A DNA stretch of 64,000 bases, from UHGV virus genome UHGV-2031204, one strand, 5' to 3'. Shown in pieces: positions 7,165 through 61,748 of this stretch. Both the position numbers and the translations under genes were made by a program. The notes beneath the pieces were generated by a model that was given only the letters and a program-made list of their open reading frames with translations, had not been told where the DNA came from and searched no databases. Source of the DNA: a virus. Each line of letters opens with the position of its first letter. Position 1 is the first letter of the stretch.

Positions 7165-7189
7165 GCTAAAAGTGTTTAGGAGTATTAAA

Positions 7190-8089
7190 ATGACAACGAA
7201 TAATAGACTTTACGGGAAAGCGCTAAGACGCATGAGCGAACAAATAGAAAAGGCGTACCAAACAATTCACGGATTAGATCAGTGCCGTTTTATTCGGTTC
7301 ATTAACGAGCATAAACGTCAAATACCCGTAACGTTTATGCCAGTTAAAGATCCGACCTATCGTGAGTATGGCGTTACCGAACAGATTCCCAGACTGATTA
7401 AGCAGTCCCTGGGACTAGGATGGCAATACGCTGCTGTTGAAATCATCTCGGATGAAGAACTGATGGCACTCTTAGCAAAAACTGAGAGACTAAAAAATAT
7501 CCCGTACTTCTGGATAGAAACCATCCCTTCATTTACTTTCTCGGTTACCGTAAATCTCGACGAATGCCCAATCACGTTATTTATCGGAAGACGTCTTTAC
7601 GAAGGTGAAGAAGTTCTCTTTGTGATGTCATGCGAAGAACATGACGAGACGGTATACATGGAGTTTGAGATTTACACGATCGATAAAAGTAATGATGATT
7701 TCGTGGAGTTAAAGCCGCTCCTTACTTCGGTTAAGGAGAATCAACGACTACTCGACGCGGTCTACATCGGGCTATATCTTTCGTCACGAATTAAACGAAC
7801 TGAGCGCGAGAAGAAAGAATTTCGCGGAAGGTCCATTCGTTATGTTCCTGATACAGAGATTCGCCCACGTAGTGAAGCGGTCGTTTTAGACGTAAGTCCG
7901 GTACAATGGGAAGATATAGAACAACAACGCAAGGAAGGACACGAGGTTTGTTTGGCGATTTATTGCTCAGCACATATCCGTCGTGCTCATTGGAAGCGTG
8001 TATGGTGTGGTAAAATGTCAGAAATGCGTTGGCGCGAATGGCGATGGATAGCGCCGAGTTACATCTCTGGATTTTATCGTGGAAAATAA
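7190..8089 (+). CDS. hypothetical protein, paralogue B (C-terminal HIRRAHWKRVW motif)
   Basis: TAGGAG RBS before ATG 7190 (track ORF 7094 starts inside the upstream gene); C-terminus AHIRRAHWKRVWCG. Confidence 0.55.
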   Translation: MTTNNRLYGKALRRMSEQIEKAYQTIHGLDQCRFIRFINEHKRQIPVTFMPVKDPTYREYGVTEQIPRLIKQSLGLGWQYAAVEIISDEELMALLAKTERLKNIPYFWIETIPSFTFSVTVNLDECPITLFIGRRLYEGEEVLFVMSCEEHDETVYMEFEIYTIDKSNDDFVELKPLLTSVKENQRLLDAVYIGLYLSSRIKRTEREKKEFRGRSIRYVPDTEIRPRSEAVVLDVSPVQWEDIEQQRKEGHEVCLAIYCSAHIRRAHWKRVWCGKMSEMRWREWRWIAPSYISGFYRGK

Positions 8090-10844: not shown

Positions 10845-11144
10845 ATGCGTTATCAAACGGAGATTGTGGAACGCTTAAGTGAAGGATTGGCAAGTGTTAA
10901 TTTAGAAACAGCGGCCGAATTTCGTGAAGCCTTCACTCTTCCGTTTCCCGATCTGGAATCCTTTTGTTTAAAGGTCGCTGAGTATTACTCGAATCTATTA
11001 GTACGTTACGGGTATGCGCCAGTACGTTCCGAACTTCCTGAAAACACGGAAGCTATCAGCTACTGGATTGACCTGCTTGAAGCAGAAACGTTATCCAATT
11101 TACGTAAGGCGGTAGACAATGAAACTCGAACCAGCACGGCGTAA
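10845..11144 (+). CDS. hypothetical protein
   Basis: ORF with AAGGAG RBS. Confidence 0.45.
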   Translation: MRYQTEIVERLSEGLASVNLETAAEFREAFTLPFPDLESFCLKVAEYYSNLLVRYGYAPVRSELPENTEAISYWIDLLEAETLSNLRKAVDNETRTSTA

Positions 11145-11787
11145 AAAGGCGGAAGCCTACGCCTTACAAATCTTAAAGTTGGTAGACCCTTCTGGCATTA
11201 ATGCCGAAGCCGCGAAGAAAGCCTTCGCACGAATGACCGACGAACAGTTTAACCGACTTCGTGACGGTTTACCTATTTACAACCCGGTGGGAAGTAAAGT
11301 CGAAATTGACCACCTGCGCAATATCGAGGTGTGCAAAATCCTCGGGGTAAACCTGGAGCAACGACTGTGGCTAACAGAACCAAAAACGGGCGTTTATCAT
11401 CGTACCCGTTACCCTCACTTAGTCTTACGCTTGCCTGTCCGTCGTCAGACACAGATGCAAGAAAAGAAAATGGCGGTTGCGAAAAACGACAAAGTCCGCG
11501 ATAAACTCTCCGGCCAAGTCGTCGGCCCTTCCAAAGCATCCGGGGTATCCTTCCCAGAAGCATACATCATGTATTCCGATGGTCACGACTGGACGCTGAA
11601 AGAGTTCCTGTGGGCGCGTGGTGGTAACGACGCACTACAACGTGCTTTCTATCAGTCGTTACGCCAAACCGGTAAAGGTCGTATTGATTTGCCTGGAGCG
11701 GAGCGAACGAGTTCTAAAGCAACGCGTACGTGGTCAGCGTACCTAAAAGCGATGCATATCGGTAACAACATAGGCCATCCGTCATGA
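11119..11787 (+). CDS. hypothetical protein
   Basis: 222-aa ORF, overlaps neighbours. Confidence 0.45.
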   Translation: MKLEPARRKKAEAYALQILKLVDPSGINAEAAKKAFARMTDEQFNRLRDGLPIYNPVGSKVEIDHLRNIEVCKILGVNLEQRLWLTEPKTGVYHRTRYPHLVLRLPVRRQTQMQEKKMAVAKNDKVRDKLSGQVVGPSKASGVSFPEAYIMYSDGHDWTLKEFLWARGGNDALQRAFYQSLRQTGKGRIDLPGAERTSSKATRTWSAYLKAMHIGNNIGHPS

Positions 11788-25095: not shown

Positions 25096-28000
25096 TTACG
25101 CCCGTTTACGACCAACGTCGAGTTGGCGGGCAGGTTGTTCAACCGCGATGTTACGTGATGCTGATCCCGGAGCAGAAGCTGCCGAGGTCGCTGGGGATGG
25201 CTGCATAGCCTGTGGTCTCTGACGAAGAATTGTTACAATCTCTCTCAGATAGCCCGCAGACTCTTTTGCAACCGCCAGCTGCTGTACGCTGATCGGATCA
25301 CCACTGTTCACTGTTGGTGTAGTCTGTGCATCAGACGTTACCGTTGGTGCAGGACGTGCGGATTTCTCCATTTGCTGTCTAGCACCTTCTTTTACTTTGG
25401 CAACTTCCTCTTCGCCCAGACCGTCAGCACGCGCATTTTGACCCACCGTTTCAACAACGACAGACGCATCACTTGGCGTGACGTCACCGCCAGGGCTCGG
25501 CACAGCCGGACCACCACCCGTTGCAGCTTTAATATCTTCAGCGCCCATCGCACCTTTGTCTGCTAAAGCGGAGTCACGATTCGCCTCGTTCGCGGCTGGC
25601 AGGTTATCTGCCGGACCAGCAATAGACGGATCGTTAGCTGCGCCAGCAGCAATTGCAGGAGACGATGGAACTGGTGATAACCCTTTCGTCATGTTTTTCG
25701 CAGACGCAGGATTTGCTGCAATCTCGTTGGTTCCAACCGCACCCATACGGCGGTTCAGTTCCTCGACAACCTCACCGATCGTACGCATCCTAACGCGTTT
25801 CTTCCCGTTCATGATATAGAAAACACCTTCATTACCGTTAAGAACGGCAGGTGTGATGTACTTCACTTTGTCGGGCGACCCGTTAGGATTGGTTTTCCAG
25901 GCTTTAAGGAACTCAGCACCACCACCTGGACCTAAGAAGTGGTACAGGTACGCTACTGCCGGAGGTGGGGCAATTCCACCCAGATCCTTTTGTGCGGTCT
26001 TGATGTTGTCTCTAATGAAGTTAACACCTAAGATTGCGTTAGCCCACGGGTCGAACTGGTCGGTTTGTGGAATACCGTATCTTCGGGCGTACTGCTTCAT
26101 AACCCCATTCCAAGTGCCATTGGTAAATTGGAACAGGCCAGCGGCAGACATCTTATTACTTCTCGGTCTACCAGAGGATGCGCCAGGATAGTTGCCATAC
26201 TGTAAGCCAGATTCTGCTTGTGCCATTGCAATCGCAACAGATGGTGGAACACCCACCATGTTTGCCGCGTCAATAATCAATGACTTGATGGCTTCAGTAT
26301 TTGACTGCATCGGTTTACCGAGCATTTCCCTTGGGTATTTAGTCACTAAGGATTTGTAATCGCCGTCTTGTAACTCACCGAGGGTGATACCAGATTGTCC
26401 AGTGGAATACTTCGCATAGTTCCCTATACCCATATCGCCAACAACTTGTGATAAGTCACCTGGCGTTCCGTAGGACTGACCACCTTTCGGTAAGTATCCG
26501 TCGTTTGAAGCTTCGCCGTAGCTGTTAATTCCCTTATAACGCTCTTTGCTATCTTCATTCGTCTGATGGACACTGGAGTTTGTCGCTGGTGATTTCCATG
26601 TCATACGCTTAGGCGTGCTCGGTGTTTCTTTGAGCATGTTCCTTACAGCCAGATCGGGTTCTTTAGACAACTCTTTCAACGTTGCTAATTCTTCCCTCAC
26701 TGAACCTGCATCGGTATTCGCATCGCCTCCTAACGGGTTAAATGCGATTTCCCACACAGACTGACGGATACCCCCTTTCATGTTGTAAGCACCACGCATC
26801 ATCAGTGCCAGCTCATAGAGGAAACCCCCTGTGAGTTTCAAATCCAACGGATCGGCATGAGGTACGTAGCGTTTTACACCATAAACGTAGGTCATGAATA
26901 CAGGTAAGAAACGATTATAGAACCAGTTCTTGTAACGCTCCTCTTTTGGACCGCCAATTGCATCAGGCGCAATCGCAGAAATTGCTTTCTTCCAATCGCC
27001 CTTATAAATGCAATTTTTGATATCCGTGTCTTTCAACACTTCTTTCTCAAGCAATCTAAAGAGGGTACGTGTTGTCTCATTGACAGATTTCACACCGTAA
27101 GATTTCCAACGGACGGATTCCATCGCGTCCAAATCTTTCTTCTCAGGTAATGCTCTCCAGTCAACTTGAATTTGAACCTGTTCAGTACCGTCTTCCCAAC
27201 CCTCAGCTTTAGCAACAGTTTCGTTACGCTCGGTATCGTTCTTCGCGAGTACCTGCGAAGATTCTGCCACAGAAGCAACCTTATGCCCTTCAGGCACAGC
27301 ACCGGCTCCAGTTGTTTCCTTACGCTTATCATCACGACGCATGTTGATCGAACGGAAAACGCGATCTTGCGCCTCAACAACTTCTTCGCCTGACAAAAAT
27401 TCTGCCGGTGTGAAGGTCACGAAATCCCACGCTTTAGAGAACCAACCTTGGTTAACTTTACGGGGATCTGTCAGCGATTTAAAAGCAGGTGCATCTTTTG
27501 TCATCTTCATTTTGTTAAAGATGGTCAGCATGTCTGCTTTTGATACCTTCGACGGATTACCAACATCAGCTAACGCGATATCGTTATCCATTGAACGTAG
27601 CGCTGTAATCCAACGTAAATAGATCGGCACAAAACGTTGTAGCATAAACGCGGTAAACGCCAGCATTTCGCCTTTGTCTTCTACGTTAGTACCAAACCCT
27701 TCGGCCAGTTTCTTCACGTCGTCACCGGACAAACCACGCAACTGTGCTTGACCATTCTCTGTATAAGAGATGTACGGTTTCAAGTTGTCTTCTAAATAAC
27801 GCGCTTTTGCGCCGTCGTCGGAAGACCATTCATCATGATCTCTAAATCCGTACTGCGCCAATCGCATGTTATCCAGATACTGGGCATTTTCACGGGTTGC
27901 AGTTTTATACGCAAACCAAGACAGCGCAGCGCCTGCAGCGACCAAGCCAATAATCGGCCAGCCAACCGCAGTTACCACTGCAGAAGCCGCTGTTGCAACA

Positions 28001-31000
28001 GCACTCACCGCAGGGACAGCCAAACGGGTCACAGCAAACTTACCAACGTTCCACAACGCTTTGCCTGCAAACCCAACCGGCTTAAAGATTCCCCATTTTG
28101 CGACTTTACCTAAGATTGAACCCACTGTGCCTAAAATACTCACAATTGGTCCTACCAACGGCAGTCCTTTAAGGAAATCCATTACCCCACGTTTACCGCC
28201 TTTCTTCTCAGCCTCTTTCTTAGCCTTTTCCTCTTCCTTAGAACGACGACGGCGTCGGAAGAACTGGAAGTAATCGCGTTTTTCATCACTGGCAGGCGGT
28301 TTATTGCGTTGGCCGAACTTACTGAACATGGTTCTTAACAAACCATCCGAAGCACCTGCTTTTTCTGCAGAATCACGCATGGTATTAAACCACGACATTT
28401 CCTGAAGATTAACCATTCGGTTCAGGCGTTCCAATAAAGCTGACCCAACGCTACGGGCTTTCTGCTTCCCTTTATTAATCACACGTCCAGCGCTATCCGT
28501 TACGGTGTCTAAGTCTTCTTTTGCCGCATCGACAATACGTGTTTTAGACACCTTACCTCTTGCGTAGATGTGCTGACGATAAAACTCAGCAACGTCGTCA
28601 TCGCGTCCTGCTAAACGACTCTCCATTCGATAACGTGTTCCAATATCGTAACGCGGATCACGGAAGGTATCGACCATATCGCTTGCACGGCCACGGAAAC
28701 GGTCAAACCAACCTCGTGCTGCACCTCCCCAACGAGAAAGATGACCACCTACCGCACTGCGGTAACGGGATATCCTGTCACGCATCCGACCACGCCAATC
28801 CCGGAACCCTTGAAAATGTTCACGGAACCCTTCGCGTATGTCCTTAGCACGCTGGAATAATCCTTTAACTGAACTGGCCCCCGTATTCCGCTCCATCTGT
28901 TCTGTCCAGGTGTCATCTTCAGCTTCACCTGGCAATCTCCGGTTAAGGAGTTTGTAGATACGGATTAAGATGTGGTTAGTTTTACGGCCGTTCGACCATG
29001 AAAACACACTAAACCCACCGCCAGAACCCCCTTCCTTACGGTTCTGCCACCAACGTGTCAACGGGTTATCAGAAGCCAACTCTTTGAGTTTCTCAAACCC
29101 GCGTTTTGCATTGTTCCACAGACGAGCTGGCATTCCCGTTACACGGGAAATCATGCTCTGTAAACGGGTTTTCTCTGCGCCCTCTGGAACCTCATTTAGC
29201 CACTCACGTGCTTTCTCGAACAGGGAAGCCGCTTTAGGTGAAATGAAACCCAGAAGTTTCTTCGGTAAGGTCACAGCTTTATTTACTGCCGTTCCTGCTT
29301 TCCCAGAAATATACTGGAATAGCGCTTGAACTTTACCGCCTTTGTAGAAGCGTAGTTTACCTGCGGCAGCCAAATCAGCAGCCGCTAAGATTAAATTACC
29401 CGCTTCGTCGACAATATCACGTCCCAGTTTAATATCGTCGAGAGTTTTAAGTTGAACCAGCTTCTCAGTTTTCGGGTCAGCCTGGTAATATTCCCCAGCT
29501 TCTAAACGGCTTCCTTGTAATACGACGTTGCCGCGTTCATCGTAAATATCACGAACGCCTAAAACGCCTTTACCGAAAGCTACGGCAGAATTCCAACCCG
29601 TCGATAAAGTACCTGTTACTAACCCTTTCAGTCGGCTAAATACACCAGGACCTTCAGAGGAACCGCCTGAGAATTTCCCACGAATAAAACCACCTAATGC
29701 TTGTAGGCGATCTTTCCCGCGCAGGAACAGATTCTTACCAAACCGCCCTACGCCTGAACCGGTATCCCAAAGCACCCCGGCCCAGCGACGTAACAAACCT
29801 GTCTCACCCAGTACAATACGTTTGCGTTTACGACGACGTTTACGACCCGAGTCACTCGAGCTTTCAGATTCGTCACCGCCATCGCGACTACCGCCTAAAC
29901 TGGCTAGGAGAATGCCTTCCTCATCCATGTTCTTAACGTGTTTGAGGATGTCTTGCACTGTACTAGATTCTGGCTGTTTGCGTACGGCATCAATCAAACG
30001 GTCGAATTGCTGCTCCAGCCCAGCGTTCGTATCTGGACGACTGCTTAAAAGTTCAACAAAGTTAGTGGATTTCTCTCCATAAAGTACCGCAGCGAGTTGA
30101 CGTGCGCTTAAACCACGACCGCGACCACCTTTTCCACCACCACGTACGTTGGACAGTTCTTTGTCTTCAAAGCTCGGCTCTGCACCTGCACCCATTCGAC
30201 GCAAGTAATCGCCCAACGCAGAACCGTTTTGCAACTTACGCTGAATCTCTTGCTCACGGGTTAACGAACGTCCAGAACGGGTCTTACCCATCGACAGGTC
30301 GTTAAATAGCGTATAGGGATCGTTAATGTCCTTATCGACTTCGAAGATATCGTTCTTCGCATCGTATTTAAAAATGCCGGAATCACGAAGTGCGTTCTCG
30401 CCGTAAATCACAGACGCAGCATCAACCGTGTCCTGACGTGCACGAATCGTTGACTGGATAGCGGCGATTTTGTTTGAAATCGCGTTGCTCAGTTCATGGT
30501 GCCCACCAACCAGTTCCGCAGAACGGGCTTCTAAAACACCCTGAATCGCTTCCACAGCGTTTGCGTTCATGTAGCGATACATGTGCATCGGGTCTTTCAA
30601 TAAAGACCCTACATCGAACGCTTTCCCTTCTGAGGCACGAGATTCGATGTAGTCCGCTAATGCTTGACGTGTTTTCCGATCGAGCGTTTTATCTTTATCG
30701 ATAAAGTCAACAGTATCGTTGATGTAAGTCTGTAAACGTTTACGCTGGTCGTCATTAGCAACGGCCTTACGTACACGGTTGCCAATAACTTTACGATCCA
30801 CCATACCGCGCGTGGTCAGGTCATAAACCTGATCGTGGTGTTCACCATATCCACGACGAATAGATTTGTTAATCTCGGACAGTAACGTCGGAATAACTTC
30901 GGTGATGCTAAGGTAAGCTTTACGATCGAATTTCGCTGCGGCAGAAAGAGATTCCGCAGAACGATCGTCTAATGCTAACGTTTCGCGACGTAGCGGGTTA

Positions 31001-32262
31001 ACTAGCCCCAAATCGTGCATTAGTCGAAACAGATCAGCTAACGGGCCGCTTGTTTCTCCTGCTATTGCCGAGTTAGAAATAGACGACAAATTACCAAAAC
31101 CATACTTCGCCAACTGTAGGCGTTTCATGACTTCTGGATTTTTCTCTAACTCGCCACGAGTCCAGTTTTGAAGACGTTCGATCTGTGGCTGTAAGAGACG
31201 TTTTGCTAACCAACCACCTGCAAAACTTGCCGCTTTATTACGCGAGTTTGTGTTACGACGGTCAGGAGACAACGATGAGCTGTCCGACATGCCAAAGTCA
31301 TCTTCCTGAGCCATCCCTAGAACTTGTTCTAGAATCCCACGGCCATCGCTAAAGACGTTCGAGATTTTCTTCTTCGCATTTTCGCGAATCTGGTCAATGA
31401 AATTATCCGCGTAGTGTAAGGGGTTCATCCACTCCGCAGCTTTACGTTTTACATTAGCCCAACGAATTTCAGAAAACTCTTCCTTCGCGTAGTCTGGCAG
31501 CGCTGTGTTCTTAACGATGGCTTCTAATGCTGGTGTATTGCGTGCAAACTCGTCTTGTTTGAGTTTCGCAATATCTTGCAAAGCAAACAGCGTTCGATAC
31601 TGCAGCTCTAACTGCTTACGCTGAACATTTAACAACACGCCACGACTTAAGCTAGTCGTTAAGTTGACGTCTTTTGCAATACCGATTACTGTCTGGAACA
31701 GTGCGTCGGACTTCATGTCCTTAATCGTGTCACGCAAGCGGTCTTCAACCATCCCTTCTTGCGTTTCGCGTTGCTGGTCCGCTGTTTGCGGTGCGCCTGA
31801 GAACACGCTGTCCAGCTCACGATCCATCATCGCTTGTTTAGGATCGTAATTCCCATAGTCGATTTGATCGTTACGTGCCCACTTGTCGATTTTCCGTGTT
31901 ACGGATTCCGGTAAATACCGTTTCAGTGTTGGACCTAACTGTCTCGCTTGCATCTTAACGACGCGAGACGTCTTTTCAATCTCGTCTTTCGTATGGGCCA
32001 GAATGTCTTGACCTGCAGCTTTAACGTTTTGATAGCCTTCGTAGGCTTCTGCCGCAGGTTTAGGCATCCCTTTTAAAATAACCTGATCACGTTTGTTTTC
32101 GGGCCAGATAGTCGACAACGCCGACTTACGGGCAGCACGAAATGTGTCCATGACCGGGTTACGCGATTGGTCTTGTTGACGAGGGGGCTCATCAAAATCG
32201 TCCCAGTCGTCCATGTTATCAAGATCGATTTCATCGAAATCATCTTTACCTTTTTTAGCCAT
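25096..32262 (-). CDS. giant virion-type protein with lytic transglycosylase (SLT) domain
   Basis: 2388 aa; acidic N-terminus; central hydrophobic region; SLT motifs AESGLQYGN, GLFQFTNGTWNG, AYLYHFLGPGGG in C-terminal third. Confidence 0.7.
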   Translation of the reverse strand: MAKKGKDDFDEIDLDNMDDWDDFDEPPRQQDQSRNPVMDTFRAARKSALSTIWPENKRDQVILKGMPKPAAEAYEGYQNVKAAGQDILAHTKDEIEKTSRVVKMQARQLGPTLKRYLPESVTRKIDKWARNDQIDYGNYDPKQAMMDRELDSVFSGAPQTADQQRETQEGMVEDRLRDTIKDMKSDALFQTVIGIAKDVNLTTSLSRGVLLNVQRKQLELQYRTLFALQDIAKLKQDEFARNTPALEAIVKNTALPDYAKEEFSEIRWANVKRKAAEWMNPLHYADNFIDQIRENAKKKISNVFSDGRGILEQVLGMAQEDDFGMSDSSSLSPDRRNTNSRNKAASFAGGWLAKRLLQPQIERLQNWTRGELEKNPEVMKRLQLAKYGFGNLSSISNSAIAGETSGPLADLFRLMHDLGLVNPLRRETLALDDRSAESLSAAAKFDRKAYLSITEVIPTLLSEINKSIRRGYGEHHDQVYDLTTRGMVDRKVIGNRVRKAVANDDQRKRLQTYINDTVDFIDKDKTLDRKTRQALADYIESRASEGKAFDVGSLLKDPMHMYRYMNANAVEAIQGVLEARSAELVGGHHELSNAISNKIAAIQSTIRARQDTVDAASVIYGENALRDSGIFKYDAKNDIFEVDKDINDPYTLFNDLSMGKTRSGRSLTREQEIQRKLQNGSALGDYLRRMGAGAEPSFEDKELSNVRGGGKGGRGRGLSARQLAAVLYGEKSTNFVELLSSRPDTNAGLEQQFDRLIDAVRKQPESSTVQDILKHVKNMDEEGILLASLGGSRDGGDESESSSDSGRKRRRKRKRIVLGETGLLRRWAGVLWDTGSGVGRFGKNLFLRGKDRLQALGGFIRGKFSGGSSEGPGVFSRLKGLVTGTLSTGWNSAVAFGKGVLGVRDIYDERGNVVLQGSRLEAGEYYQADPKTEKLVQLKTLDDIKLGRDIVDEAGNLILAAADLAAAGKLRFYKGGKVQALFQYISGKAGTAVNKAVTLPKKLLGFISPKAASLFEKAREWLNEVPEGAEKTRLQSMISRVTGMPARLWNNAKRGFEKLKELASDNPLTRWWQNRKEGGSGGGFSVFSWSNGRKTNHILIRIYKLLNRRLPGEAEDDTWTEQMERNTGASSVKGLFQRAKDIREGFREHFQGFRDWRGRMRDRISRYRSAVGGHLSRWGGAARGWFDRFRGRASDMVDTFRDPRYDIGTRYRMESRLAGRDDDVAEFYRQHIYARGKVSKTRIVDAAKEDLDTVTDSAGRVINKGKQKARSVGSALLERLNRMVNLQEMSWFNTMRDSAEKAGASDGLLRTMFSKFGQRNKPPASDEKRDYFQFFRRRRRSKEEEKAKKEAEKKGGKRGVMDFLKGLPLVGPIVSILGTVGSILGKVAKWGIFKPVGFAGKALWNVGKFAVTRLAVPAVSAVATAASAVVTAVGWPIIGLVAAGAALSWFAYKTATRENAQYLDNMRLAQYGFRDHDEWSSDDGAKARYLEDNLKPYISYTENGQAQLRGLSGDDVKKLAEGFGTNVEDKGEMLAFTAFMLQRFVPIYLRWITALRSMDNDIALADVGNPSKVSKADMLTIFNKMKMTKDAPAFKSLTDPRKVNQGWFSKAWDFVTFTPAEFLSGEEVVEAQDRVFRSINMRRDDKRKETTGAGAVPEGHKVASVAESSQVLAKNDTERNETVAKAEGWEDGTEQVQIQVDWRALPEKKDLDAMESVRWKSYGVKSVNETTRTLFRLLEKEVLKDTDIKNCIYKGDWKKAISAIAPDAIGGPKEERYKNWFYNRFLPVFMTYVYGVKRYVPHADPLDLKLTGGFLYELALMMRGAYNMKGGIRQSVWEIAFNPLGGDANTDAGSVREELATLKELSKEPDLAVRNMLKETPSTPKRMTWKSPATNSSVHQTNEDSKERYKGINSYGEASNDGYLPKGGQSYGTPGDLSQVVGDMGIGNYAKYSTGQSGITLGELQDGDYKSLVTKYPREMLGKPMQSNTEAIKSLIIDAANMVGVPPSVAIAMAQAESGLQYGNYPGASSGRPRSNKMSAAGLFQFTNGTWNGVMKQYARRYGIPQTDQFDPWANAILGVNFIRDNIKTAQKDLGGIAPPPAVAYLYHFLGPGGGAEFLKAWKTNPNGSPDKVKYITPAVLNGNEGVFYIMNGKKRVRMRTIGEVVEELNRRMGAVGTNEIAANPASAKNMTKGLSPVPSSPAIAAGAANDPSIAGPADNLPAANEANRDSALADKGAMGAEDIKAATGGGPAVPSPGGDVTPSDASVVVETVGQNARADGLGEEEVAKVKEGARQQMEKSARPAPTVTSDAQTTPTVNSGDPISVQQLAVAKESAGYLREIVTILRQRPQAMQPSPATSAASAPGSASRNIAVEQPARQLDVGRKRA

Positions 32263-32291
32263 AACGTTTAATCCGTATCAGGAGATTTAGC

Positions 32292-33911
32292 GTGAATAAA
32301 CTTAATTGGGTTGACTTTTATCTGCTCAATGTAAACAAGTCTCTTGTGTCGCGATTACGACCCGTCACGACCACGGATACTTTCCAGGGGTTAACAAAAA
32401 ACTTTCACCCCGAAGGTCTTTACTCTACAGAGATTTTTGGACTCACGGGTAGTGAAGCGCGAGACTCTACATTCTCTTATATCGATATTAAGCTCGATAT
32501 CATTTCGCCGACAGTGTGTTTGGCGTTATTCCAACTCAAACAACTCTACGAAGAAATTTGTTCTGGAAAACGCTACGCAACGTGGAGCGAAAAAGAAAAA
32601 GATTTCGAACCGGCCTTGCCGGGAGACCCAGGCGCAGATACCGGTTTTAACTTCTTCCTCAGTCACTATAACGATTTAAAACCTAAGCGTAACGAGTCTC
32701 TACAACGTGACGAAACCGTGGATTTCTTTTTGAAATTCCGTCCCGTTAGTCTTAGTCGATACGTTCTCGTGTTACCCGCGGGTTTACGCGATTTAGTAAT
32801 TCGACAAGATGGTAGAGAGCAAGAAGAAGAAATCGGCGGGATGTATCGTCGGTTGGTATCTCTCGCCAGAGCGATCCCTGACCGGGCAACCCGTGTCGAG
32901 TTAACTAACCCCGTACGCTGGAAACTTCAACAAACCTTCAATGATATCTGGATGTATTTCTTTAACATCCAGGACGGTAAAGGGGGTTTCCAACGTCGTA
33001 AAGTGACGTCTCGTAAGTTAATGAACGGGACACGTAACGTACTGTCCTCGTTCTCGACGGGGTCTAAATGCATGGGTCGTGAAGACGCTATTCGTCCCAC
33101 CGACACCAAAATTGGTTTATACCAGGGTTTAAAAGCATTACTCCCCGTTGCGCAGTACCAGATACGAGAACGTTACCTCGGTAACATCCGTGCCGGTGAT
33201 GGCAACCTTTACGGCGTAAACACCAAAACCCTTAAACGTGAATTCTTGGAAGTAGGTGGTCGTGTATACGACACCTTTACCACCGACGATGGGATTGAAT
33301 CCTTAATCAACCGAATGGAAGCTCGCGAGCTTCGCCATCAACCGATTATGTTGGACGACACCCACTACGTTGCGTTGGTTTACCAAGACACCAAACATTT
33401 TAAGGTGTTCTACGATATTGAAGAACTTCCTAAAACGTTTGACCGAAAATTCGTCCACGGTATGACGCTCGTCGAATTGCTTTATTTGTCGGGCTACGAA
33501 CTTTGGAACGATTATTTCGGTTTCGTTACACGTTATCCCGTTACAGGCCGAGGCTCGACGTATTCATCGACCATAAGATTGGAGACCACCACGTCATCTT
33601 TATACTTAAAAGAACTGGAAGATGACTGGGAAACTGAAAAACCCCGAGGGGCTATCAGCTACCCTGACCGGTCGGTTCCTACCTTCGTTGAGTCTATGGC
33701 ACCACACCCTTCACGCCTAGGTGGGTTAGGGGGTGACTACGACGGCGATACCGGGTCGTTTAACGCGCCTATGTCCCAGGAAGCGCTCGAGGAAAACCGG
33801 AACTGGATACACTCGAAAAACTACTGGTTCGATTCTGATGGGAACTTTAAAATCAATCCTATCAACAACGTGATTAAACGTGCAACGCAAGCGTTATTAA
33901 AGAACCCATAA
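32292..33911 (+). CDS. multisubunit RNA polymerase beta-prime homologue, N-terminal module (GTG start)
   Basis: Matches E. coli beta-prime blocks: FHPEGLYSTEIFG, YVLVLPAGLRDL (VLPVLPPDLRPL), MYRR, GKGGFQRRKVTSRKLMNGTRNVL ([23 protein letters not shown]), GDYDGDTGS (NADFDGD). Confidence 0.75.
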   Translation: MNKLNWVDFYLLNVNKSLVSRLRPVTTTDTFQGLTKNFHPEGLYSTEIFGLTGSEARDSTFSYIDIKLDIISPTVCLALFQLKQLYEEICSGKRYATWSEKEKDFEPALPGDPGADTGFNFFLSHYNDLKPKRNESLQRDETVDFFLKFRPVSLSRYVLVLPAGLRDLVIRQDGREQEEEIGGMYRRLVSLARAIPDRATRVELTNPVRWKLQQTFNDIWMYFFNIQDGKGGFQRRKVTSRKLMNGTRNVLSSFSTGSKCMGREDAIRPTDTKIGLYQGLKALLPVAQYQIRERYLGNIRAGDGNLYGVNTKTLKREFLEVGGRVYDTFTTDDGIESLINRMEARELRHQPIMLDDTHYVALVYQDTKHFKVFYDIEELPKTFDRKFVHGMTLVELLYLSGYELWNDYFGFVTRYPVTGRGSTYSSTIRLETTTSSLYLKELEDDWETEKPRGAISYPDRSVPTFVESMAPHPSRLGGLGGDYDGDTGSFNAPMSQEALEENRNWIHSKNYWFDSDGNFKINPINNVIKRATQALLKNP

Positions 33912-33920
33912 GGCTAAGCA

Positions 33921-36900
33921 ATGCTGCTCATTAAACAGTTTAACCAACGCTTCTCGGTGCGTAAAACCGATGAGTTTGGTAATCCGAGGATTATCCCGCT
34001 CGAGAAGCTACAGATACCGCGAGGTTCTGTACTCCATGTCATTGATCTCGACCAGGTGGTGTTAGCGCCGCCTGCAACACTCGAGATTATTCAACCGTTA
34101 GAAAAACCTGCACAGGTTCGTCACCACTTTAAATTACCGGAAGACGGTATTAGCGGACATCCGCGCAACAAACCTGTTCAGGGGCAAGAACGTGCTATCT
34201 TTGCCTACCACCGTGCAAACCGCCCGATGCGTCGTCTTACCTCAGACGAACTGGTTCGCAAAGACTTAAAAGTTCTCCTGATCGAGAACTACACGCCGAT
34301 GCTATCGCACTACTACTATCCTGATACCCAGTTAGCCTGGTACGATAGATTGCGTAACATCCAACTGCTGATGATTAACCAGTTCAAATACAACACGCAA
34401 GAATACATGCGTCAGAACTATTTCGTTATTGAACTGGGTTCGGCATTACCTTCGTTCCAGAAGTTTCAAACAACTTATAACGACCGTGTTAAGAGCAAGA
34501 TTGAGAAGTTCCAGGACTTCAACTTGCTGTGGTTATTAGAACTGTTTGCTTGGGCTTATGGAAAACAATCCGATTCCTTATTCGCGGGAATGGATTTAAC
34601 TCAGCTGTCACGAATGAACTTTATCTTCACCCACAACACGGGCTTTACGTCCATGAACATGGGTGTTGTAGAGAAAATGCGTAAGTCCTCCGGCGGTCGT
34701 TTAAGTGACGACCAAATGGCCAGGATGTTCTACCGTACGCTGGTGCGTGTAATGACACAAGCACCGTCTAACGCGTACGAAGCGGAATTCCTAACGCCTG
34801 AAGGTGACGAACGTGTTTTCCTTAAAGACGTCGAAGAAGAAACCGTTGATGTTGTCGATGATGACGACGTTGTTAATGACGCTGTGGTCGAATCCGATAA
34901 CACCTTCGATGAAAAAGAAGACGTCGTTATTGAAGAACCGAAGGAAGACGTCAAACCGACGACAATTGTTGTCGAGAAAGTCATTCCGCACGACGAGATT
35001 ATTAAACAGGAAGCACAACGCTTAGCTGAAGCGGGCCGCTTAAGTTCTAAAGCTTATCAGTTCCTGTCAGAATCGTCTAAACGTTTCGTTCAGCTGCCTA
35101 ACCCGTATAACCCGAAAGAAACCTACGGGGAAGCGCTTACTGTTCACGAGAAAGACGTCGTCGTTAAAGCCGAGCCGAAAAAGGTTCAGCGACTTGTTAC
35201 CGACGAAGGGTGGGCCGAGAACGTCACCGACCAGATGGTGAAACAATACAACCAGACCATGATGACCAAAGACGTGCTGGCGGCGGTCGCCAGTTCACAA
35301 CGTTTGGGTCTGGCGATTCACAATCACACGGTGGAAAAAGAAGTTTCTGTTACAGGGACTATCGAGCACCACACTTTACGTGTTCAACCAGTCGGTGGTG
35401 AGCCGACAACCGTTCGCTTCTCTATCCCAGGCTTGACCGAGGACGGTACTTGGGTAGCTAATGGTGTCGAATACACCATGCGCCGACAACGTGTGGACTT
35501 ACCGATTCGTAAGGTTGCACCGGATACTGTCGCACTGACTACCGCATACGGTAAAAACTTTGTCCGTCGTAGTGATAAGGTCGCAAACGACTACGGTCGT
35601 TGGTTAACCAACGCGATTATCACACGCGCTGTTGACCCGACAAACACCGAAGTCACCGATGCACGTTTAGCAAATGTGTTCGATCCTACGCAACATCTGC
35701 CTCGTCAGTATACGGAGATTGCACGTCGTATTGCCAGCTTTAATGCGAATGGCTATATGTGGAACTTCGACTACAAAGAAGCCGTTAACTTCTTTAATGA
35801 CGAGCAACTCAGAGACGCCGATGCTGCCAAACTTTTGCCAGTGGCGAAACGTCCGCGTAGTGAAACAATCCTGGCAATGGATGACAAATCCATGCTTTAC
35901 GGTGTGAACGGAAACAAAGTTGAGCCGGTGGGAACTATCGCAGAGGTACTGGGCTTTAATAACCAGAAAGTGCCTCGCGAAATGACCGAGCTGTCTTTGA
36001 TGGGTAAATCTTTGTCGCTTGGTTTTATCTTCTCGTTCTACCTTGGACTCCAGGGAATGTTGAAACATTTCGGTATCCAGTACGAGTTGGTTCCCGCAGG
36101 GCAGCGTGTTGATAAGAATGCCTACGACAGTATTATTCGGCTACAAGACTGTAAACTTTTAGTTACATGCGATAACGATCAGCAGAAGATGATTCTGCAT
36201 GGTTTGGATCGCTATCTCAAACACCTGGTTGCTTATACCGAATCAGAAGCAGACCGCGAAGACATTTACCTGAACTTATTACGTGATGCAGATGGCCTAA
36301 CACCACGGTACATCAACGAGCTGAAACAGATGCGGTCCGCGTTTGTTGACGACATGCACGCACGTATCCTCAGGAAAATGGGTGAACCGGAAACCTTTAT
36401 TGGCTTGTTGGAACGTTCTAACGAACTGTTACAAACTGACCACTCTTTACCAGAGATTAACGGCGATGAAATGATGTTCTTAGGCAATCAGAGGATTGCC
36501 TACCACATCTATACTGCGATGGTCAGAGCGATGCGTAACTACAATAACGCACCGGGCAGTAACCGTAAGTTCGAACTGACGCAAGACATGGTTTGGGGTG
36601 CAATTAACTCCGACCCGTCGGTACTTTTGGCACCAGGCGCTAACCCTATCCAGTCAATTAAAGAAAAAGACGTTATTACGATGGGGGGTACAGGTGGCCG
36701 TAATCGTAAAACGATGGTCTACCACACGCGTGAATTCCAACCCAGTGATATCGGGATAGTCTCGGGTAACACCGTAGATAACGGTGACGTAGGTATTACA
36801 GCTTTCGTCACCAATAACCCACGTTTTGACACCGTTGACGGTACTACATTTAAACGTGAAGAGAAACCCCCGAAACCAAGCGATACCCTTTCGTTTATTG

Positions 36901-38087
36901 ACGGGTTAGTACCAGATACGTTAATGGACGACGCAAAGCGTCAAAACTTCGTTGGGATTCAGTTAGGTTCTGCCACCAGTTGTAATGGGGCAACCACAAC
37001 CCCGTATCGTACTGAACAGGAGAAATTCGTCGCACACCGTACGTCGGTGAAACATGCACGCGTTATTGATAAAGCAGGTAAGATTACTGGTCTGTCGAAA
37101 GACCACATTGAAATTACGTACGAAGATGGAAGTAAAGAAGCCTTTCCTCTAGGGCGCTGGTTCGGCCCCCACGAAGGTACCTTCTATCCGCACACCTTGG
37201 TAACACGCTGGAAAGCCGGTGACAAGCTCCCGGCCGGAGCAGTGATTACGTACAACGAGCAACACTTTGAACCTGATATTTACGATCCTACTCAGGTTTC
37301 CTGGAAAAACGGGGTGCTGGCTACCGTTGCTTTATTAGAAGCTGAAGAAGTTATCGAAGACTCCAATGCAATTTCTGAACGGTTCGCGAAGAAAATGGTA
37401 GGGCAGGTAACAAAGCTGAAAGAAGTAACGATTAACAGCAACCAAATGCTTTTGGAAATCGTGAATGAGGGCGACCACGTAGACGTCGATACAATCCTAT
37501 GCACGTTTACTGACGACTTGACAGGCGATATGAGTGCCTTTAGTCAGGAAGCAGCCGCAACGTTGCAAAGTTTAAGTTCGTACGCACCTCGTGCAGGGGT
37601 ACGTGGTATCGTGGATAAAATCGAAGTGGTGTATCACGGTGAAACCGAAGACATGACACCAAGCCTTGCTGAACTGGTGCGTAAATACGACAGAATTCGT
37701 CGTAAAGCCGCACTAGCAGTCGGACGAGGTGATCCGGTTTCAGGCAGTGTAAACGGCGACTACCGTGTCGAAGGTGTACCATTAGCCTTTAACTCACTTT
37801 GTGTTCGATTCTTTATTACACACGACGTTGAGATGGCCGCTGCGGATAAGATGGTTATTGCTAACCAGCTAAAAACCACCGTACAAGAAGTCATGTACGG
37901 CGACAACAAAACAGAGGATGGTGATGACCTGGACGTGTTGTTCGGTCGTGATTCTGTCGATGCGCGTATCGTAGGTTCAATCCAACGTATCGGTACCGCG
38001 AATGCTGTAGGTGAACAAGCCGGGATTCTCATCGGGCGTATACTCGATGGGGAAGCTGTGCCTGATTTACCCGCGACACTTAAATAA
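33921..38087 (+). CDS. multisubunit RNA polymerase beta homologue with long N-terminal extension
   Basis: GGTGGRNRK...[25 protein letters not shown] parallels beta GPGGLTRER...[47 protein letters not shown] parallels SLIPFLEHDDANRALMGA; AGDK block. Confidence 0.7.
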   Translation: [1388 protein letters not shown]

Positions 38088-38094
38088 TCTCGAG

Positions 38095-38113
38095 GGGTGG
38101 GTCGCTCCCACCC
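38095..38113 (+). promoter_or_regulatory. intergenic stem-loop without U-tract before RBS
   Basis: GGGTGGG/CCCACCC stem then GGAGAAGAGA and ATG 38135. Confidence 0.35.
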
Positions 38114-38134
38114 TGATAAACTCCGGAGAAGAGA

Positions 38135-38428
38135 ATGTCTATTCTAGATAAAATCAAACAGCGGCACGGTATTCCGACTGGGAAAAATATTACCCAGCAA
38201 AACGTGGAGGGATACAGTCCCATTCAACGTACCAACTACGTGTCTTTAGGTAATACCGTTGAATTAGCAACGGAGATTGTACATGGACTGATTCGCGGTA
38301 ACTCAGGAATGTCTGACCGTATCGGTGATCAGAAACTGCTGAAACGTGATATCGCAGATCTGGTGGGCGCGCGTTTGTACGCGATGCTTCGGGCGAACAT
38401 CAGCACGAATAAAGAGGTTAAACAATGA
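38135..38428 (+). CDS. hypothetical protein
   Basis: 97-aa ORF, ATGA overlap with next gene. Confidence 0.45.
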   Translation: MSILDKIKQRHGIPTGKNITQQNVEGYSPIQRTNYVSLGNTVELATEIVHGLIRGNSGMSDRIGDQKLLKRDIADLVGARLYAMLRANISTNKEVKQ

Positions 38429-39885
38429 TCAGTTTATACTCGCTGAATGCGGTTACTAACGCCATGAAACTGTGCAAGCAGCATAATGTTCAGCTTGGCA
38501 CAGACGTTGACTCTCCGGTTGATTTACTCAACCGTGCGGTCGACCCTACGCGCGTTTTCGATACCACAATCACCGACGAACAGTTCTTCCAGGAACTGCC
38601 TGCGATTACGCAGCTTAAACGTCCTGTAGACGGTACGGCGGAAGCTTCGATTATTCGTGACGGCGCTGTTGAAGTTGAAGCACTGCGTGTTGACGATCAC
38701 GAAACCACGCTATTCGAACTGAAGAACATGGCCATTCAGCGTTGTAACGGGATGCTGGACTTTGCCCGTAACGTTGTTCAACCATTTGTGCAGCTGGTTA
38801 TCCAAAATAACACGATTGAAGATGTCAAACCGTTGGTCGAAGACTGGAACCTGATTCCGGTAGGTATCGATCCGTGTGTGGATTCCCCAGTTGTCCAGGC
38901 GCTGATTCAAGAAATCGCCAACCCGATGGGTAACGGTACGACTTACGACCCAATCAAGTTCGATGTACCGACCGACATCGAGATTCCGGAAACAGGTGTA
39001 AAAGCGTACGATGAGATGGTGCGTAAATTACTGAACGACCTGAACCTCAGCATGTACGATGCAGCAAAACTGCTGCTGGCAGGTAACTACACCGTACCTG
39101 TTGCAGATAAAGCACCGGAGATGGTAAAAGAACGTGTTCTGGTGCTGCTGTTGTCTTCGTTCTTCATTGAACGTCCGTGGCCTGACTCAGGTGTTGACGC
39201 CCTGAAATGGAAAGCGGAAATGGGTCGTGCCTATTACACGTCTATCGGTTGGGTATACGGCTTTGAAAAAGCGGTGGCTAACCGTGTCGCCACAGGTAAC
39301 ATCGTTTACTCTTACGATACCAACGAGAAAAACGTCTATATCTGTCAGGAAACGATGGATGACTACCTGGAAAAAGGTGGTATCGTTGAAGCCCTGTTGG
39401 GTGCCATTTACCTGATGGACGAAGGCGACTATAACGTTTCCGCACGCGTGGCGTCTCTGCTGGAAAACCAGAAAGCCTACGTTGAAGCTTACAATCGTCG
39501 TGCGATTATCGTTCAGAAACGAAATGAACTCGATTGGGTAAGTCGTAACCGTCAGGCGTTGAAAACAGCGTTCTCGATTGCAATCGACCAACTCGACCAG
39601 GGCTACCTGACTGTTGGCGAACTGACGCGTACTCGCGAAGAAGTCAAGCAGGTTGTTATGGGTATTTGTGATGATTTCTTTGTCAACGCAGACGAAGACA
39701 TTACGTTGTTTATCATCCGGACTGCATGTAACTCCGTATTCTGCGCCTACGAAATTGATCCGCTGATGCGTACGATTCATACAGCAATGATTGAGAACAC
39801 CGACCCGGCAGAAGCCGCAACCAGTTGGATGATTGACTATGTACTGAACTGGATCGCAGGTTCAGTATTTGTCGATAAACTTTAA
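38425..39885 (+). CDS. hypothetical protein
   Basis: 486-aa ORF. Confidence 0.55.
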   Translation: MISLYSLNAVTNAMKLCKQHNVQLGTDVDSPVDLLNRAVDPTRVFDTTITDEQFFQELPAITQLKRPVDGTAEASIIRDGAVEVEALRVDDHETTLFELKNMAIQRCNGMLDFARNVVQPFVQLVIQNNTIEDVKPLVEDWNLIPVGIDPCVDSPVVQALIQEIANPMGNGTTYDPIKFDVPTDIEIPETGVKAYDEMVRKLLNDLNLSMYDAAKLLLAGNYTVPVADKAPEMVKERVLVLLLSSFFIERPWPDSGVDALKWKAEMGRAYYTSIGWVYGFEKAVANRVATGNIVYSYDTNEKNVYICQETMDDYLEKGGIVEALLGAIYLMDEGDYNVSARVASLLENQKAYVEAYNRRAIIVQKRNELDWVSRNRQALKTAFSIAIDQLDQGYLTVGELTRTREEVKQVVMGICDDFFVNADEDITLFIIRTACNSVFCAYEIDPLMRTIHTAMIENTDPAEAATSWMIDYVLNWIAGSVFVDKL

Positions 39886-39897
39886 CGCGCTTAGGAG

Positions 39898-40632
39898 GTG
39901 ATCGTGAGTGCGATTGAAACAGCCCGTCGTGACCCTACTAAGGTTCATGCGGACTTGGTAAATAACGGCACGGTCACCACTACCAAAGGGGGATGTTACA
40001 TTTACATCCCCGTTGGGTTTGTGGCGAAAGAGTTGGCGGTTATTTCTTCTACGGTAACAATTGTAGGTATCTTTGCGATTTCTACCGACCGTAAAACATA
40101 TGGGGTGTCCAGCGTTACAACGCTTATGGAAATTACCCCAACGGCGTTTGAAGAGATCGACGTCTTTGGTGTTCCTTACTACGAATTTCGTTTTGATCCC
40201 GGTACAGTGGTTTTCCCCAACCGCAATTTACAGGTGTTGTCTCACCCTATTTACAACATTGCGTCGTATATTTACGACTTTGGTAATCGTCCTTTCTGGT
40301 TTACTGCGGCGGATGATGCTGAACTCTTGGCACCTGATAAAGTCAAGAAATGGAACGGTTTTACTGTATTTGCCGATCAGATTACCGCTGACGTTTACGC
40401 AGCACACACGCAGCGTAAAGTAGGTGATCCGAGAACGTTCTTCCGTTATACGCTGAAGAAAGATAGCGATCTTAACAACCCTGTGCAGTTTATTCCGTTG
40501 CGCAGTGGTTCACTTAACAAAACGTCGAGACTGGCGAAACTTGCGGACGTAGAACTTAAACGTGGTATTCGTTCTGCGTTACAGGTTGACCCGGTGCGTG
40601 CCGAACCGCTCGAAGATTTGTTTATGAGGTAA
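39898..40632 (+). CDS. hypothetical protein (GTG start)
   Basis: TAGGAGG RBS before GTG 39898. Confidence 0.5.
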   Translation: MIVSAIETARRDPTKVHADLVNNGTVTTTKGGCYIYIPVGFVAKELAVISSTVTIVGIFAISTDRKTYGVSSVTTLMEITPTAFEEIDVFGVPYYEFRFDPGTVVFPNRNLQVLSHPIYNIASYIYDFGNRPFWFTAADDAELLAPDKVKKWNGFTVFADQITADVYAAHTQRKVGDPRTFFRYTLKKDSDLNNPVQFIPLRSGSLNKTSRLAKLADVELKRGIRSALQVDPVRAEPLEDLFMR

Positions 40633-40663
40633 TCCTACCTTTTACTTTTACTCGGGGAAAACA

Positions 40664-41467
40664 ATGGATAATTTAACACTGCGTTACAACTGTGTAGCGT
40701 TAGCCGGTGTTAACGCTCCAGCCACACTGGAGAAAGACGCGGATGGTTATTACCGCGTACTATTGGGCGCTTTGAATATCTTTAACTCGGAAGGGATTTT
40801 TTACGCCTATAACGAGTCCAAACACGTATTCGAACGCTCGAACATTTTTATGCGTAAAGTGAAAGCAGGGAATCTGTTCGGGGAAGAAGATCACCCAGCA
40901 CCAGAACCCGGTATGACCGAAGCGCAATGGATTGATCGCAACGAATGGATTGAGACGAAAAACGTCTGTATGCACATTCGCGAAGTTGAAGTGATTCCAA
41001 CCGACCAAACCTGTAACGGCTTGCCGGTCATGGAAATCTGGGGCTGGGTTAAGCCGAACCGTGAACGTGGTCCGTACTTAGCAGAAGCGCTCGAAAACCC
41101 ACACCAGAATGTGTGTTTCTCTCTGCGCGCAATCGTACGTGAAGGCTATGTGGGCGGTGTGAAAACACGTCGCTTAGATCGCCTGGTGACGTTCGACTGG
41201 GTTATCGAAGACGGGTTGCAGATTTGTAACAAATACTCTGCAATTCAACGCGGTAGTAAAGTGGCGCAAGAATCCACTCGTGTACTGCTGGACCGTCGTG
41301 TTTCTCTCCAGGCGCTGGAGGACATTCTGCGAAATCCTAACACTACGTCTGCCATCGCGACAGAATCTCGTCGTGGTGAAGTTCGTGCGTTAGCGCAGGA
41401 GTACCTGGCCATCGCTAATAAGAAAACTAACCTACGTGTTATGGGTTTAGGTAACGGGAAGTGGTAA
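40664..41467 (+). CDS. hypothetical protein
   Basis: 267-aa ORF. Confidence 0.5.
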   Translation: MDNLTLRYNCVALAGVNAPATLEKDADGYYRVLLGALNIFNSEGIFYAYNESKHVFERSNIFMRKVKAGNLFGEEDHPAPEPGMTEAQWIDRNEWIETKNVCMHIREVEVIPTDQTCNGLPVMEIWGWVKPNRERGPYLAEALENPHQNVCFSLRAIVREGYVGGVKTRRLDRLVTFDWVIEDGLQICNKYSAIQRGSKVAQESTRVLLDRRVSLQALEDILRNPNTTSAIATESRRGEVRALAQEYLAIANKKTNLRVMGLGNGKW

Positions 41468-42106
41468 ATGGCTGATACTGTTGAACCTTCGTTGGTGAAG
41501 TGGTTAGAGCAACAACTGCCACGCACCGCAAAGAAAGTTTCTTTGAAAAAGTTAGATAGCGCCCCGTTACATATCAGCGATCGAAAGATTTCGGTTTTCA
41601 CGCCTCGGATTCCTTATAGCGTTTACAGAGACGAAGACAAAACGGTACCCCGTATTTGTTGTTCTGTCGATTTAGAACGTTGCCTGCGTGGTGTCCGTCG
41701 TTACTTTACACCTGCGGAAACCGCAAACGTTGTGCCACGTTTTTATCTGTATGGGTTCGACGAACGTGATGTCGTGCAACCCTCGATAGAACTGTCTGCT
41801 GAACCCTACCGCGCTAATGAAGTGTGGATTGTTCCTCACCGCTTATCAAACTGGGAAATTAAACCTAGTATGATTGGTGAACTGCGTTTAGTTCGACTGG
41901 CAAATAACGGATACACTCACACGTTAGCAGTAGCGCTTAACCAAGACGTTCGTTTGAATGCTAACCAGTTATTAAAGAGTGGTTCATTCTACGAACTTAC
42001 TGTAACGTGTAGTGAACGGGAACCTCAGATTACGATTTCTGATGCAAAGGAAATCTCTCGGGGTATTTTTGACGCTGCGTTAAACGAATACACTGTAACT
42101 CCATAA
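41468..42106 (+). CDS. hypothetical protein
   Basis: Start overlaps upstream stop (TAAATG). Confidence 0.5.
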   Translation: MADTVEPSLVKWLEQQLPRTAKKVSLKKLDSAPLHISDRKISVFTPRIPYSVYRDEDKTVPRICCSVDLERCLRGVRRYFTPAETANVVPRFYLYGFDERDVVQPSIELSAEPYRANEVWIVPHRLSNWEIKPSMIGELRLVRLANNGYTHTLAVALNQDVRLNANQLLKSGSFYELTVTCSEREPQITISDAKEISRGIFDAALNEYTVTP

Positions 42107-61672: not shown

Positions 61673-61748
61673 GGGGGTGTAGCACAATTGGTAGTGCAGC
61701 GGTCTCCAAAACCGAAGGTTGGGAGTTCGAAACTTCCCGCCCCCGCCA
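61673..61748 (+). tRNA. tRNA-Trp (anticodon CCA)
   Basis: Manual cloverleaf: D-stem GCAC/GTGC with G18 G19, anticodon loop CTCCAAA (U33, CCA, A37), T-arm GGGAG-TTCGAAA-CTTCC, acceptor GGGGTG with 1:72 mismatch; 3' end uncertain by a few nt. Confidence 0.75.

Follow-up and report, generated by a model that had tools for sequence, protein, structure and literature searches.

Which RNA polymerase (RNAP) is encoded by two adjoining open reading frames (ORFs) at positions 32292-38087 of UHGV virus genome UHGV-2031204, and does the first of them genuinely end shortly after its catalytic loop? A first-pass annotation of this stretch of DNA, which comprises 64,000 nucleotides (nt) and is referred to here as the window, had described the pair as a split multisubunit RNAP, in which a truncated β′ module is followed by an extended homologue of β. 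There is little doubt that ORF1 and ORF2 encode the N-terminal β′ (β′N) and N-terminal β (βN) subunits of a virion-packaged RNAP (vRNAP) of an SPN3US/phiEaH2-like jumbo phage related to phiKZ, an identity that follows from orthology to SPN3US, from synteny, from profile and fold matches and from the invariance of catalytic residues. The two genes are:

32292-33911, + strand: ORF1 (β′N gene), 539 amino acids (aa), 62 kDa; orthologue of SPN3US gp240 and phiKZ gp180
33921-38087, + strand: ORF2 (βN gene), 1388 aa, 156.5 kDa; orthologue of SPN3US gp241 and phiKZ gp178

ORF1 starts with a GTG codon located seven bases 3' of an AGGAG sequence, and 9 nt separate its stop codon from the start of ORF2. 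By megablast, the region falls among SPN3US/phiEaH2-like jumbo phages, with ~75% nucleotide identity. When the proteins of the SPN3US genome were compared by tblastn with the 64-kb window, to which this search was confined, the following counterparts were found:

32292-33902: SPN3US gp240, 86% identity over all 537 aa
33921-38081: SPN3US gp241, 76% identity
38135-38407: SPN3US gp242, 64% identity
38425-39873: SPN3US gp243, 56% identity
39904-40629: SPN3US gp244, 87% identity
40664-41464: SPN3US gp245 (prohead protease), 81% identity
11119-11781: SPN3US gp218, 83% identity

No match in the window was obtained for SPN3US gp42 or for gp34 and gp35 of the non-virion RNAP (nvRNAP). The order and orientation of the orthologues are the same in the window as in SPN3US, whose vRNAP subunits gp240 and gp241 (Thomas et al., 2016, PMC5105663; Ali et al., 2017, PMC5694885) have the same lengths, neighbors and orientation as ORF1 and ORF2, the same β′ split site and the same N-terminal extension on βN, with gp218, gp244 and gp245 at the same relative positions. 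The layout, namely a giant tail-fibre gene on the - strand followed by β′N, βN, a small ORF, an ORF of ~490 aa, an ORF of ~240 aa and the protease gene, is common to the window, phiEaH2, SPN3US and a Phikzvirus. Among PHROG families, ORF1 belongs to phrog_2986 (E 7e-234) and ORF2 to phrog_3148 (E 0), both of which are labelled RNA polymerase β subunit, and >1000 homologues of ORF1 were found, hence the gene pair is not a chance pattern.

The kinship of both proteins with cellular RNAP is visible only by family profiles or structure. A Pfam scan of ORF1, ORF2 and their neighbors retrieved no RNAP family even at E ≤ 1, so that the domain models of cellular RpoB/RpoC (RNA_pol_Rpb1/Rpb2) are matched by neither ORF, and with single sequences in phmmer searches against the PDB, ORF1 reached only E 0.4 and ORF2 returned noise (laccases). 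Of the profile searches proposed in the first-pass annotation, those with family profiles recover β′ and β, and those with the Pfam RpoB/RpoC models do not.

For ORF1, a family profile of 30 sequences was searched against the PDB, where the best match was the β′N chain of the AR9 nvRNAP (7S00 chain d, E 1.5e-12), and plastid and cyanobacterial RpoC1/γ chains were matched as well (E 4e-9 to 1e-5). The same searches aligned residues 469-528 to E. coli β′ 447-507, the stretch with NADFDGD, and hhalign aligned residues 140-252 to E. coli β′ 218-356 (E 1e-5). The catalytic motif lies close to the end of the protein:

33732-33749, + strand: GDYDGD Mg2+-binding motif of the β′ double-psi β-barrel, ORF1 aa 481-486, equivalent of NADFDGD

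Residues D482, D484, G485 and D486 are invariant in the 30 homologues, which share 38-85% identity. After GDYDGD only 53 residues follow, a correction to the ~35 counted originally, and the end of ORF1 corresponds to about residue 518 of the 1407 residues of E. coli β′ in the profile alignment; consequently, ORF1 lacks the bridge-helix/trigger-loop half of β′, as had been proposed. The reported lack of the N-terminal zinc finger was likewise borne out, since the protein has only three cysteines (76, 90 and 260) and no CxxC pair, and hence no zinc ribbon. On sequence grounds, ORF1 is assigned the clamp, the lid and the catalytic DxDGD part of β′, and the AR9 and E. coli alignments agree with the initial view of a β′ module cut shortly after the DxDGD loop. 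Among the 120 matches listed, the length of ORF1 homologues is mostly 534-547 aa (range 475-692), and in SPN3US, phiEaH2 and a Phikzvirus the β′N gene stops at the corresponding position.

For ORF2, the profile of a family of 22 sequences matches Thermus β (E 4e-14) in three collinear pieces, in which Thermus β 117-142 is aligned weakly to ORF2 504-529, 530-656 to ORF2 982-1112 and 822-916 to ORF2 1296-1387. By hhalign, E. coli β 516-1132 aligns to ORF2 905-1375 (E 3e-7), and this alignment spans the fork, the DDANR motif and the active-site lysines of GDK...NKG. A structural model of residues 461-1388 (AlphaFold 2, AF2; mean predicted local distance difference test score, pLDDT, 78) was matched by Foldseek to whole bacterial β chains with E 1e-19 and probability 1.0 over ~1050 alignment columns, at an identity of ~13% in these structural alignments; the RNAP fold expected for ORF2 was thereby recovered in the structure test that had been suggested. 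Two blocks stand out:

36633-36845, + strand: equivalent of the β fork and rifampicin region, ORF2 aa 905-975, GGTGGRN...GDVGI; E. coli β 516-575 and onwards (hhalign)
37806-37976, + strand: β double-psi β-barrel segment with active-site lysines, ORF2 aa 1296-1352; Thermus β 822-916, E. coli β GDKMAGRHGNKG region

In the family alignment, G922, G925, R937, G945, P967 and G974 of the first block and D1309, K1310 and K1318 of the second are invariant, and the fork-region blocks noticed in the first reading thus have a counterpart in E. coli β from residue 516 onwards. In the model, residues 461-920 form the ordinary N-terminal lobes of β. ORF2 carries β from the N-terminal lobes via the fork to the β double-psi β-barrel and ends at about residue 1132 of the 1342 residues of E. 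coli β (hhalign).

The products of the ORF2 family fall into three length classes among 149 representatives, one of which is full length. The second class ends exactly at the position of ORF2 aa 526, after TMRRQRVD, and the third at ~aa 975-1010, in the vicinity of DDAKR (aa 1003-1007); both of these short classes thus stop at highly conserved β motifs. In Serratia phage Totoro (L018:1471-7665), an HNH endonuclease gene lies within the second gap of the ORF2 relative, pointing to insertions of homing endonucleases or introns. ORF2 of the window is itself uninterrupted.

The portion of ORF2 that has no counterpart in β is N-terminal. An extension had been reported before, with a length of roughly 1000 aa; the extension exists, but as residues 461-920 belong to the ordinary β lobes, it amounts to about 390-435 aa, close to the length of ~400 residues published for SPN3US gp241 (PMC5105663). 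An AF2 model of residues 1-500 (mean pLDDT 77) divides it as follows:

33921-34775, + strand: vRNAP-specific N-terminal globular domain, aa 1-285, isoelectric point (pI) 9.7, pLDDT ~90
34776-34988, + strand: disordered acidic linker, aa 286-356, net charge -20, pI 4.05
34845-34880, + strand: acidic run inside the linker, aa 309-320
34989-35222, + strand: helical connector between the acidic linker and the β fold, aa 357-434; helices 358-406

No structural neighbor of the globular domain was found in the PDB. The linker, which is modelled as disordered at aa 287-355, has a pLDDT of 33-42 over most of its length, no homology to β was detected for the connector (aa 357-434), and the first β strands of the ORF2 fold begin at ~aa 464. 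An exhaustive search with a hidden Markov model (HMM) of ORF2 1-480 retrieved 547 cluster representatives, with all matches listed at or near the protein N-terminus, and the same search did not find the extension outside the virion-type family. The acidic run that had been taken for an insert is present at aa 309-320, but its acidity is a family trait of the linker rather than an insert: an acidic window, defined as 30 aa with a net negative charge of at least 8, occurs near residue 316 in 97% of 142 representatives, compared with 6-19% for control regions. What is conserved is the acidic composition and not the sequence of the linker, which in the window differs in sequence from that of SPN3US and is 13 aa shorter overall. 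Exactly at the boundary of domain and linker lies an A-x-E motif of the prohead-protease type, AYE at ORF2 aa 285-287 (34773-34781). SPN3US has DYE at this position and its gp241 is reported as unprocessed, while the βN homologue of 201phi2-1 is cut at TFE-275 (PMC5694885).

Two further genes of the window are assigned to the same enzyme by orthology:

11119-11787, + strand: βC gene, 222 aa, pI 10; orthologue of gp218 (83%); phrog_3233 'RNA polymerase beta subunit', E 6e-93
39904-40632, + strand: candidate β′C gene, 242 aa; orthologue of gp244 (87%); phrog_2926, E 5e-91

Beyond what had been annotated at first, β is split as well, and the 222-aa product of the βC gene at 11119-11787, which is of the right size, should supply the last ~200 residues of β that are missing from ORF2. 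A βC profile had no match in the PDB, and hhalign with its shallow alignment (effective number of sequences, Neff, 1.4) gave E 0.17 to E. coli β and E 0.052 to SPN3US nvRNAP gp34. The candidate β′C gene, located 1.8 kb downstream of ORF2, has two in-frame GTG codons at 39898 and 39904, of which 39904 is probably the start, as the Shine-Dalgarno sequence AGGAGG fits this position. Its profile matched no RNAP in the PDB, the best hit being a 'helicase loader' (8v9t_V, E 0.0033) that is probably due to chance, and hhalign of this shallow profile against E. coli β′ and SPN3US gp35 gave E values of about 0.8. For gp244 itself, the published HMM evidence for β′C is weak (E 0.05, PMC5105663) and the assignment was made by SPN3US genetics and proteomics (PMC5105663, PMC5694885). 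The initial expectation that the rest of β′ is encoded elsewhere is in line with the literature, in which the missing half consists of two polypeptides (PMC5105663, PMC5694885), and with the β′C candidate at 39904-40632; the bridge helix and trigger loop are predicted to reside in the second polypeptide, β′M. In total, four of the five vRNAP pieces have an orthologue in the window.

The vRNAP of phiKZ comprises gp180 (β′N with DFDGD), gp178 (βN), gp149 and gp80 (PMC10612078), and a Phikzvirus shares the module and its gene order with the window. The phiKZ-type βN is a much more distant relative than that of SPN3US, with ~35% identity to ORF2 from aa 330 onwards. The N-terminal 330 aa of ORF2 were not recovered by tblastn in phiKZ-type genomes, and exhaustive HMM search with this N-terminal region finds many full-length representatives (~1370-1500 aa). 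The same split β/β′ architecture is found in the nvRNAP of phiKZ (PMC8287921, PMC7618050) and in that of AR9 (PDB 7S00/7S01, PMC9209446), where β′N ends ~50-55 aa after D(F/Y)DGD, like ORF1. The nvRNAPs are, however, a different paralogous set, which is made post-infection and has an extra specificity subunit (phiKZ gp68, AR9 gp226). In cyanobacteria and plastids, β′ is naturally split into γ/RpoC1 and β′/RpoC2, and the first piece contains the catalytic loop, as in ORF1; yet RpoC1/γ chains are 624-688 aa long with the motif near residue 485 and ~190 aa beyond it, whereas ORF1 has only 53 aa there.

Since both polymerase sets of such phages contain split β/β′ homologues, and since the best PDB match of the ORF1 profile is a non-virion subunit (AR9), it might be argued that the pair belongs to the nvRNAP, which is made after infection and transcribes middle and late genes in the phage nucleus. 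This is very improbable, as the virion subunits match the window at 76-87% identity and gp34 and gp35 of the nvRNAP do not (tblastn), the gene order is that of a head-gene block adjoining the prohead protease, and the N-terminal extension of ORF2 is shared with SPN3US gp241 (PMC5105663) and heads every long relative found; the AR9 match simply reflects the lack of a solved virion enzyme. The tblastn comparison and the head-gene context were taken to rule out the nvRNAP set. Nor is it credible, beyond a very slight chance, that the two proteins are decayed, catalytically dead relics, retained in the head solely for a structural role or for ejection. Their position among head genes and their extreme divergence from cellular RNAP, with no Pfam match and the low identity in structural alignments given above (~13%), would fit such a fate, but the Mg2+ aspartates, the active-site lysines of β and the glycines and arginine of the fork are invariant down to ~20-40% identity, the orthologous subunits of SPN3US are essential (PMC5105663, PMC5694885), and phiKZ and related phages infect despite rifampicin, that is, without need of the host polymerase (PMC13282480). 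A dead relic was rejected on account of the invariant catalytic residues.

The split after DxDGD could in principle also be an artefact, with a frameshift, sequencing error or intron in a longer β′ gene and ORF2 as its misread continuation, and the interruption of ORF2 relatives in many phages at two discrete sites, one gap with an HNH endonuclease gene, lends this some color. Against it stand the tight length distribution of ORF1 homologues, the identical end of ORF1 in SPN3US, phiEaH2 and a Phikzvirus, the AR9 β′N, which likewise ends ~55 aa past DYDGD, and the fact that ORF2 begins with a conserved N-terminal domain of its own and is β-like, not β′-like, so that the artefact has next to no probability; narrow homologue lengths and identical gene boundaries in distant phages were considered to rule it out. 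Several points nevertheless weigh against assigning the pair to a vRNAP. The relationship to cellular RNAP is remote, given that the Pfam RpoB/RpoC models stay below any threshold, and for ORF1 the support consists entirely of sequence profiles. Virion location and activity are carried over from orthologues at 76-86% identity, and the identity of βC and β′C comes from orthology, their shallow profiles giving no link to β or β′. A gp42-like β′M was not found in the 64-kb window, either by PHROG scans of the other large ORFs or by tblastn with gp42, and the absence of matches to the non-virion gp34 and gp35 in the window is uninformative about the genome, as in SPN3US these genes lie ~180 kb away.

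How the vRNAP of the window would work can be outlined from its better-studied relatives. In SPN3US, where genetics and mass spectrometry have established gp240 and gp241 as the β′N and βN subunits, the head contains these two together with gp42 (β′M), gp218 (βC) and gp244 (β′C), and in amber mutants of gp241, gp218 or gp244 all five proteins are gone from the particles, which are non-infectious (PMC5105663, PMC5694885). Because all five are lost together, the SPN3US vRNAP assembles before prohead entry. Five vRNAP subunits are likewise present in the virions of Goslar (10.64898/2026.04.21.720040). In phiKZ, ~10 copies of the DFDGD subunit gp180 are present per virion, and the protein, once injected, remains outside the phage nucleus (PMC10612078); in the early-infection (EPI) vesicle, early genes are transcribed by the injected vRNAP independently of the host polymerase (reviewed in PMC13282480). 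By analogy, β′N and βN of the window would assemble in the cytoplasm with βC, β′C and a β′M encoded outside the window, and would enter the prohead only as a complete assembly, for which βN would be indispensable. Each head may hold ~10 copies that enter the host along with the DNA, whereupon the enzymes would transcribe early genes inside the early-infection vesicle without the host polymerase. The label 'factor-independent' used in the first-pass annotation is not established for the virion enzyme.

For the N-terminal module of βN, a role in head incorporation or ejection is the most likely hypothesis. That it is more than a head-targeting tag is rather improbable. According to this proposal, the acidic linker would be a DNA mimic like σ region 1.1 and might shield the packaged enzyme from the DNA around it until ejection; the basic domain might stand in for missing α or σ functions in assembly or in the recognition of early promoters; and the domain might be cut off at AYE287 on head maturation, as in 201phi2-1 and unlike SPN3US.

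The surroundings of the pair contain the following further features:

25096-32262, - strand: giant 'tail fibre' gene (phrog_3201), 2388 aa; SLT lytic transglycosylase domain at aa 1995-2093
61673-61748, + strand: tRNA-Trp gene, anticodon CCA; ARAGORN and Rfam agree
6238-7164 and 7094-8089, + strand: two adjoining ORFs with a 71-nt overlap; both match phrog_6160 (unknown function)

The start codon of the tail-fibre gene is located 29 bp from that of ORF1 on the opposite strand, and with starts so close together the promoters of both genes must sit within coding sequence; the same divergent tail-fibre/β′N pair is found in SPN3US, phiEaH2 and a Phikzvirus. A scan of 31500-41600 for σ70 promoters and terminators yielded nothing informative. 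In this region, 4 matches to σ70-type promoters were counted, below the number in shuffled sequence (11.9 ± 3.7), a weak signal that is compatible with transcription not using the host polymerase. The ORFs at 6238-7164 and 7094-8089 are tandem paralogues, as both match phrog_6160. The proteins encoded by ORF1 and ORF2 are 96% and 93% identical, respectively, to proteins in Salmonella enterica assemblies, and in the nearest public contig found, IMGVR_UViG_3300045988_113438, the βC protein is 100% identical, with the DNA differing at 37/1066 positions, which makes the window a close relative of this contig and not a part of it.

The gene pair is already known, in that its members are orthologues of experimentally studied proteins and a textbook marker of phiKZ-like jumbo phages; SPN3US orthology and synteny uphold the first-pass view of a lineage marker rather than a new system. 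It marks the window as belonging to an SPN3US/phiEaH2-like jumbo phage and settles how four of the five vRNAP genes are to be annotated. No virion RNAP structure was found in the PDB, and the residual value of the locus is to provide one more sequence for the unsolved vRNAP problem. Published work accounts for everything but the first ~430 aa of βN, and this conserved module is the obvious candidate for some of the tasks that the enzyme faces, namely assembly without α, the use of early promoters without σ, entry into the prohead and passage through the tail.

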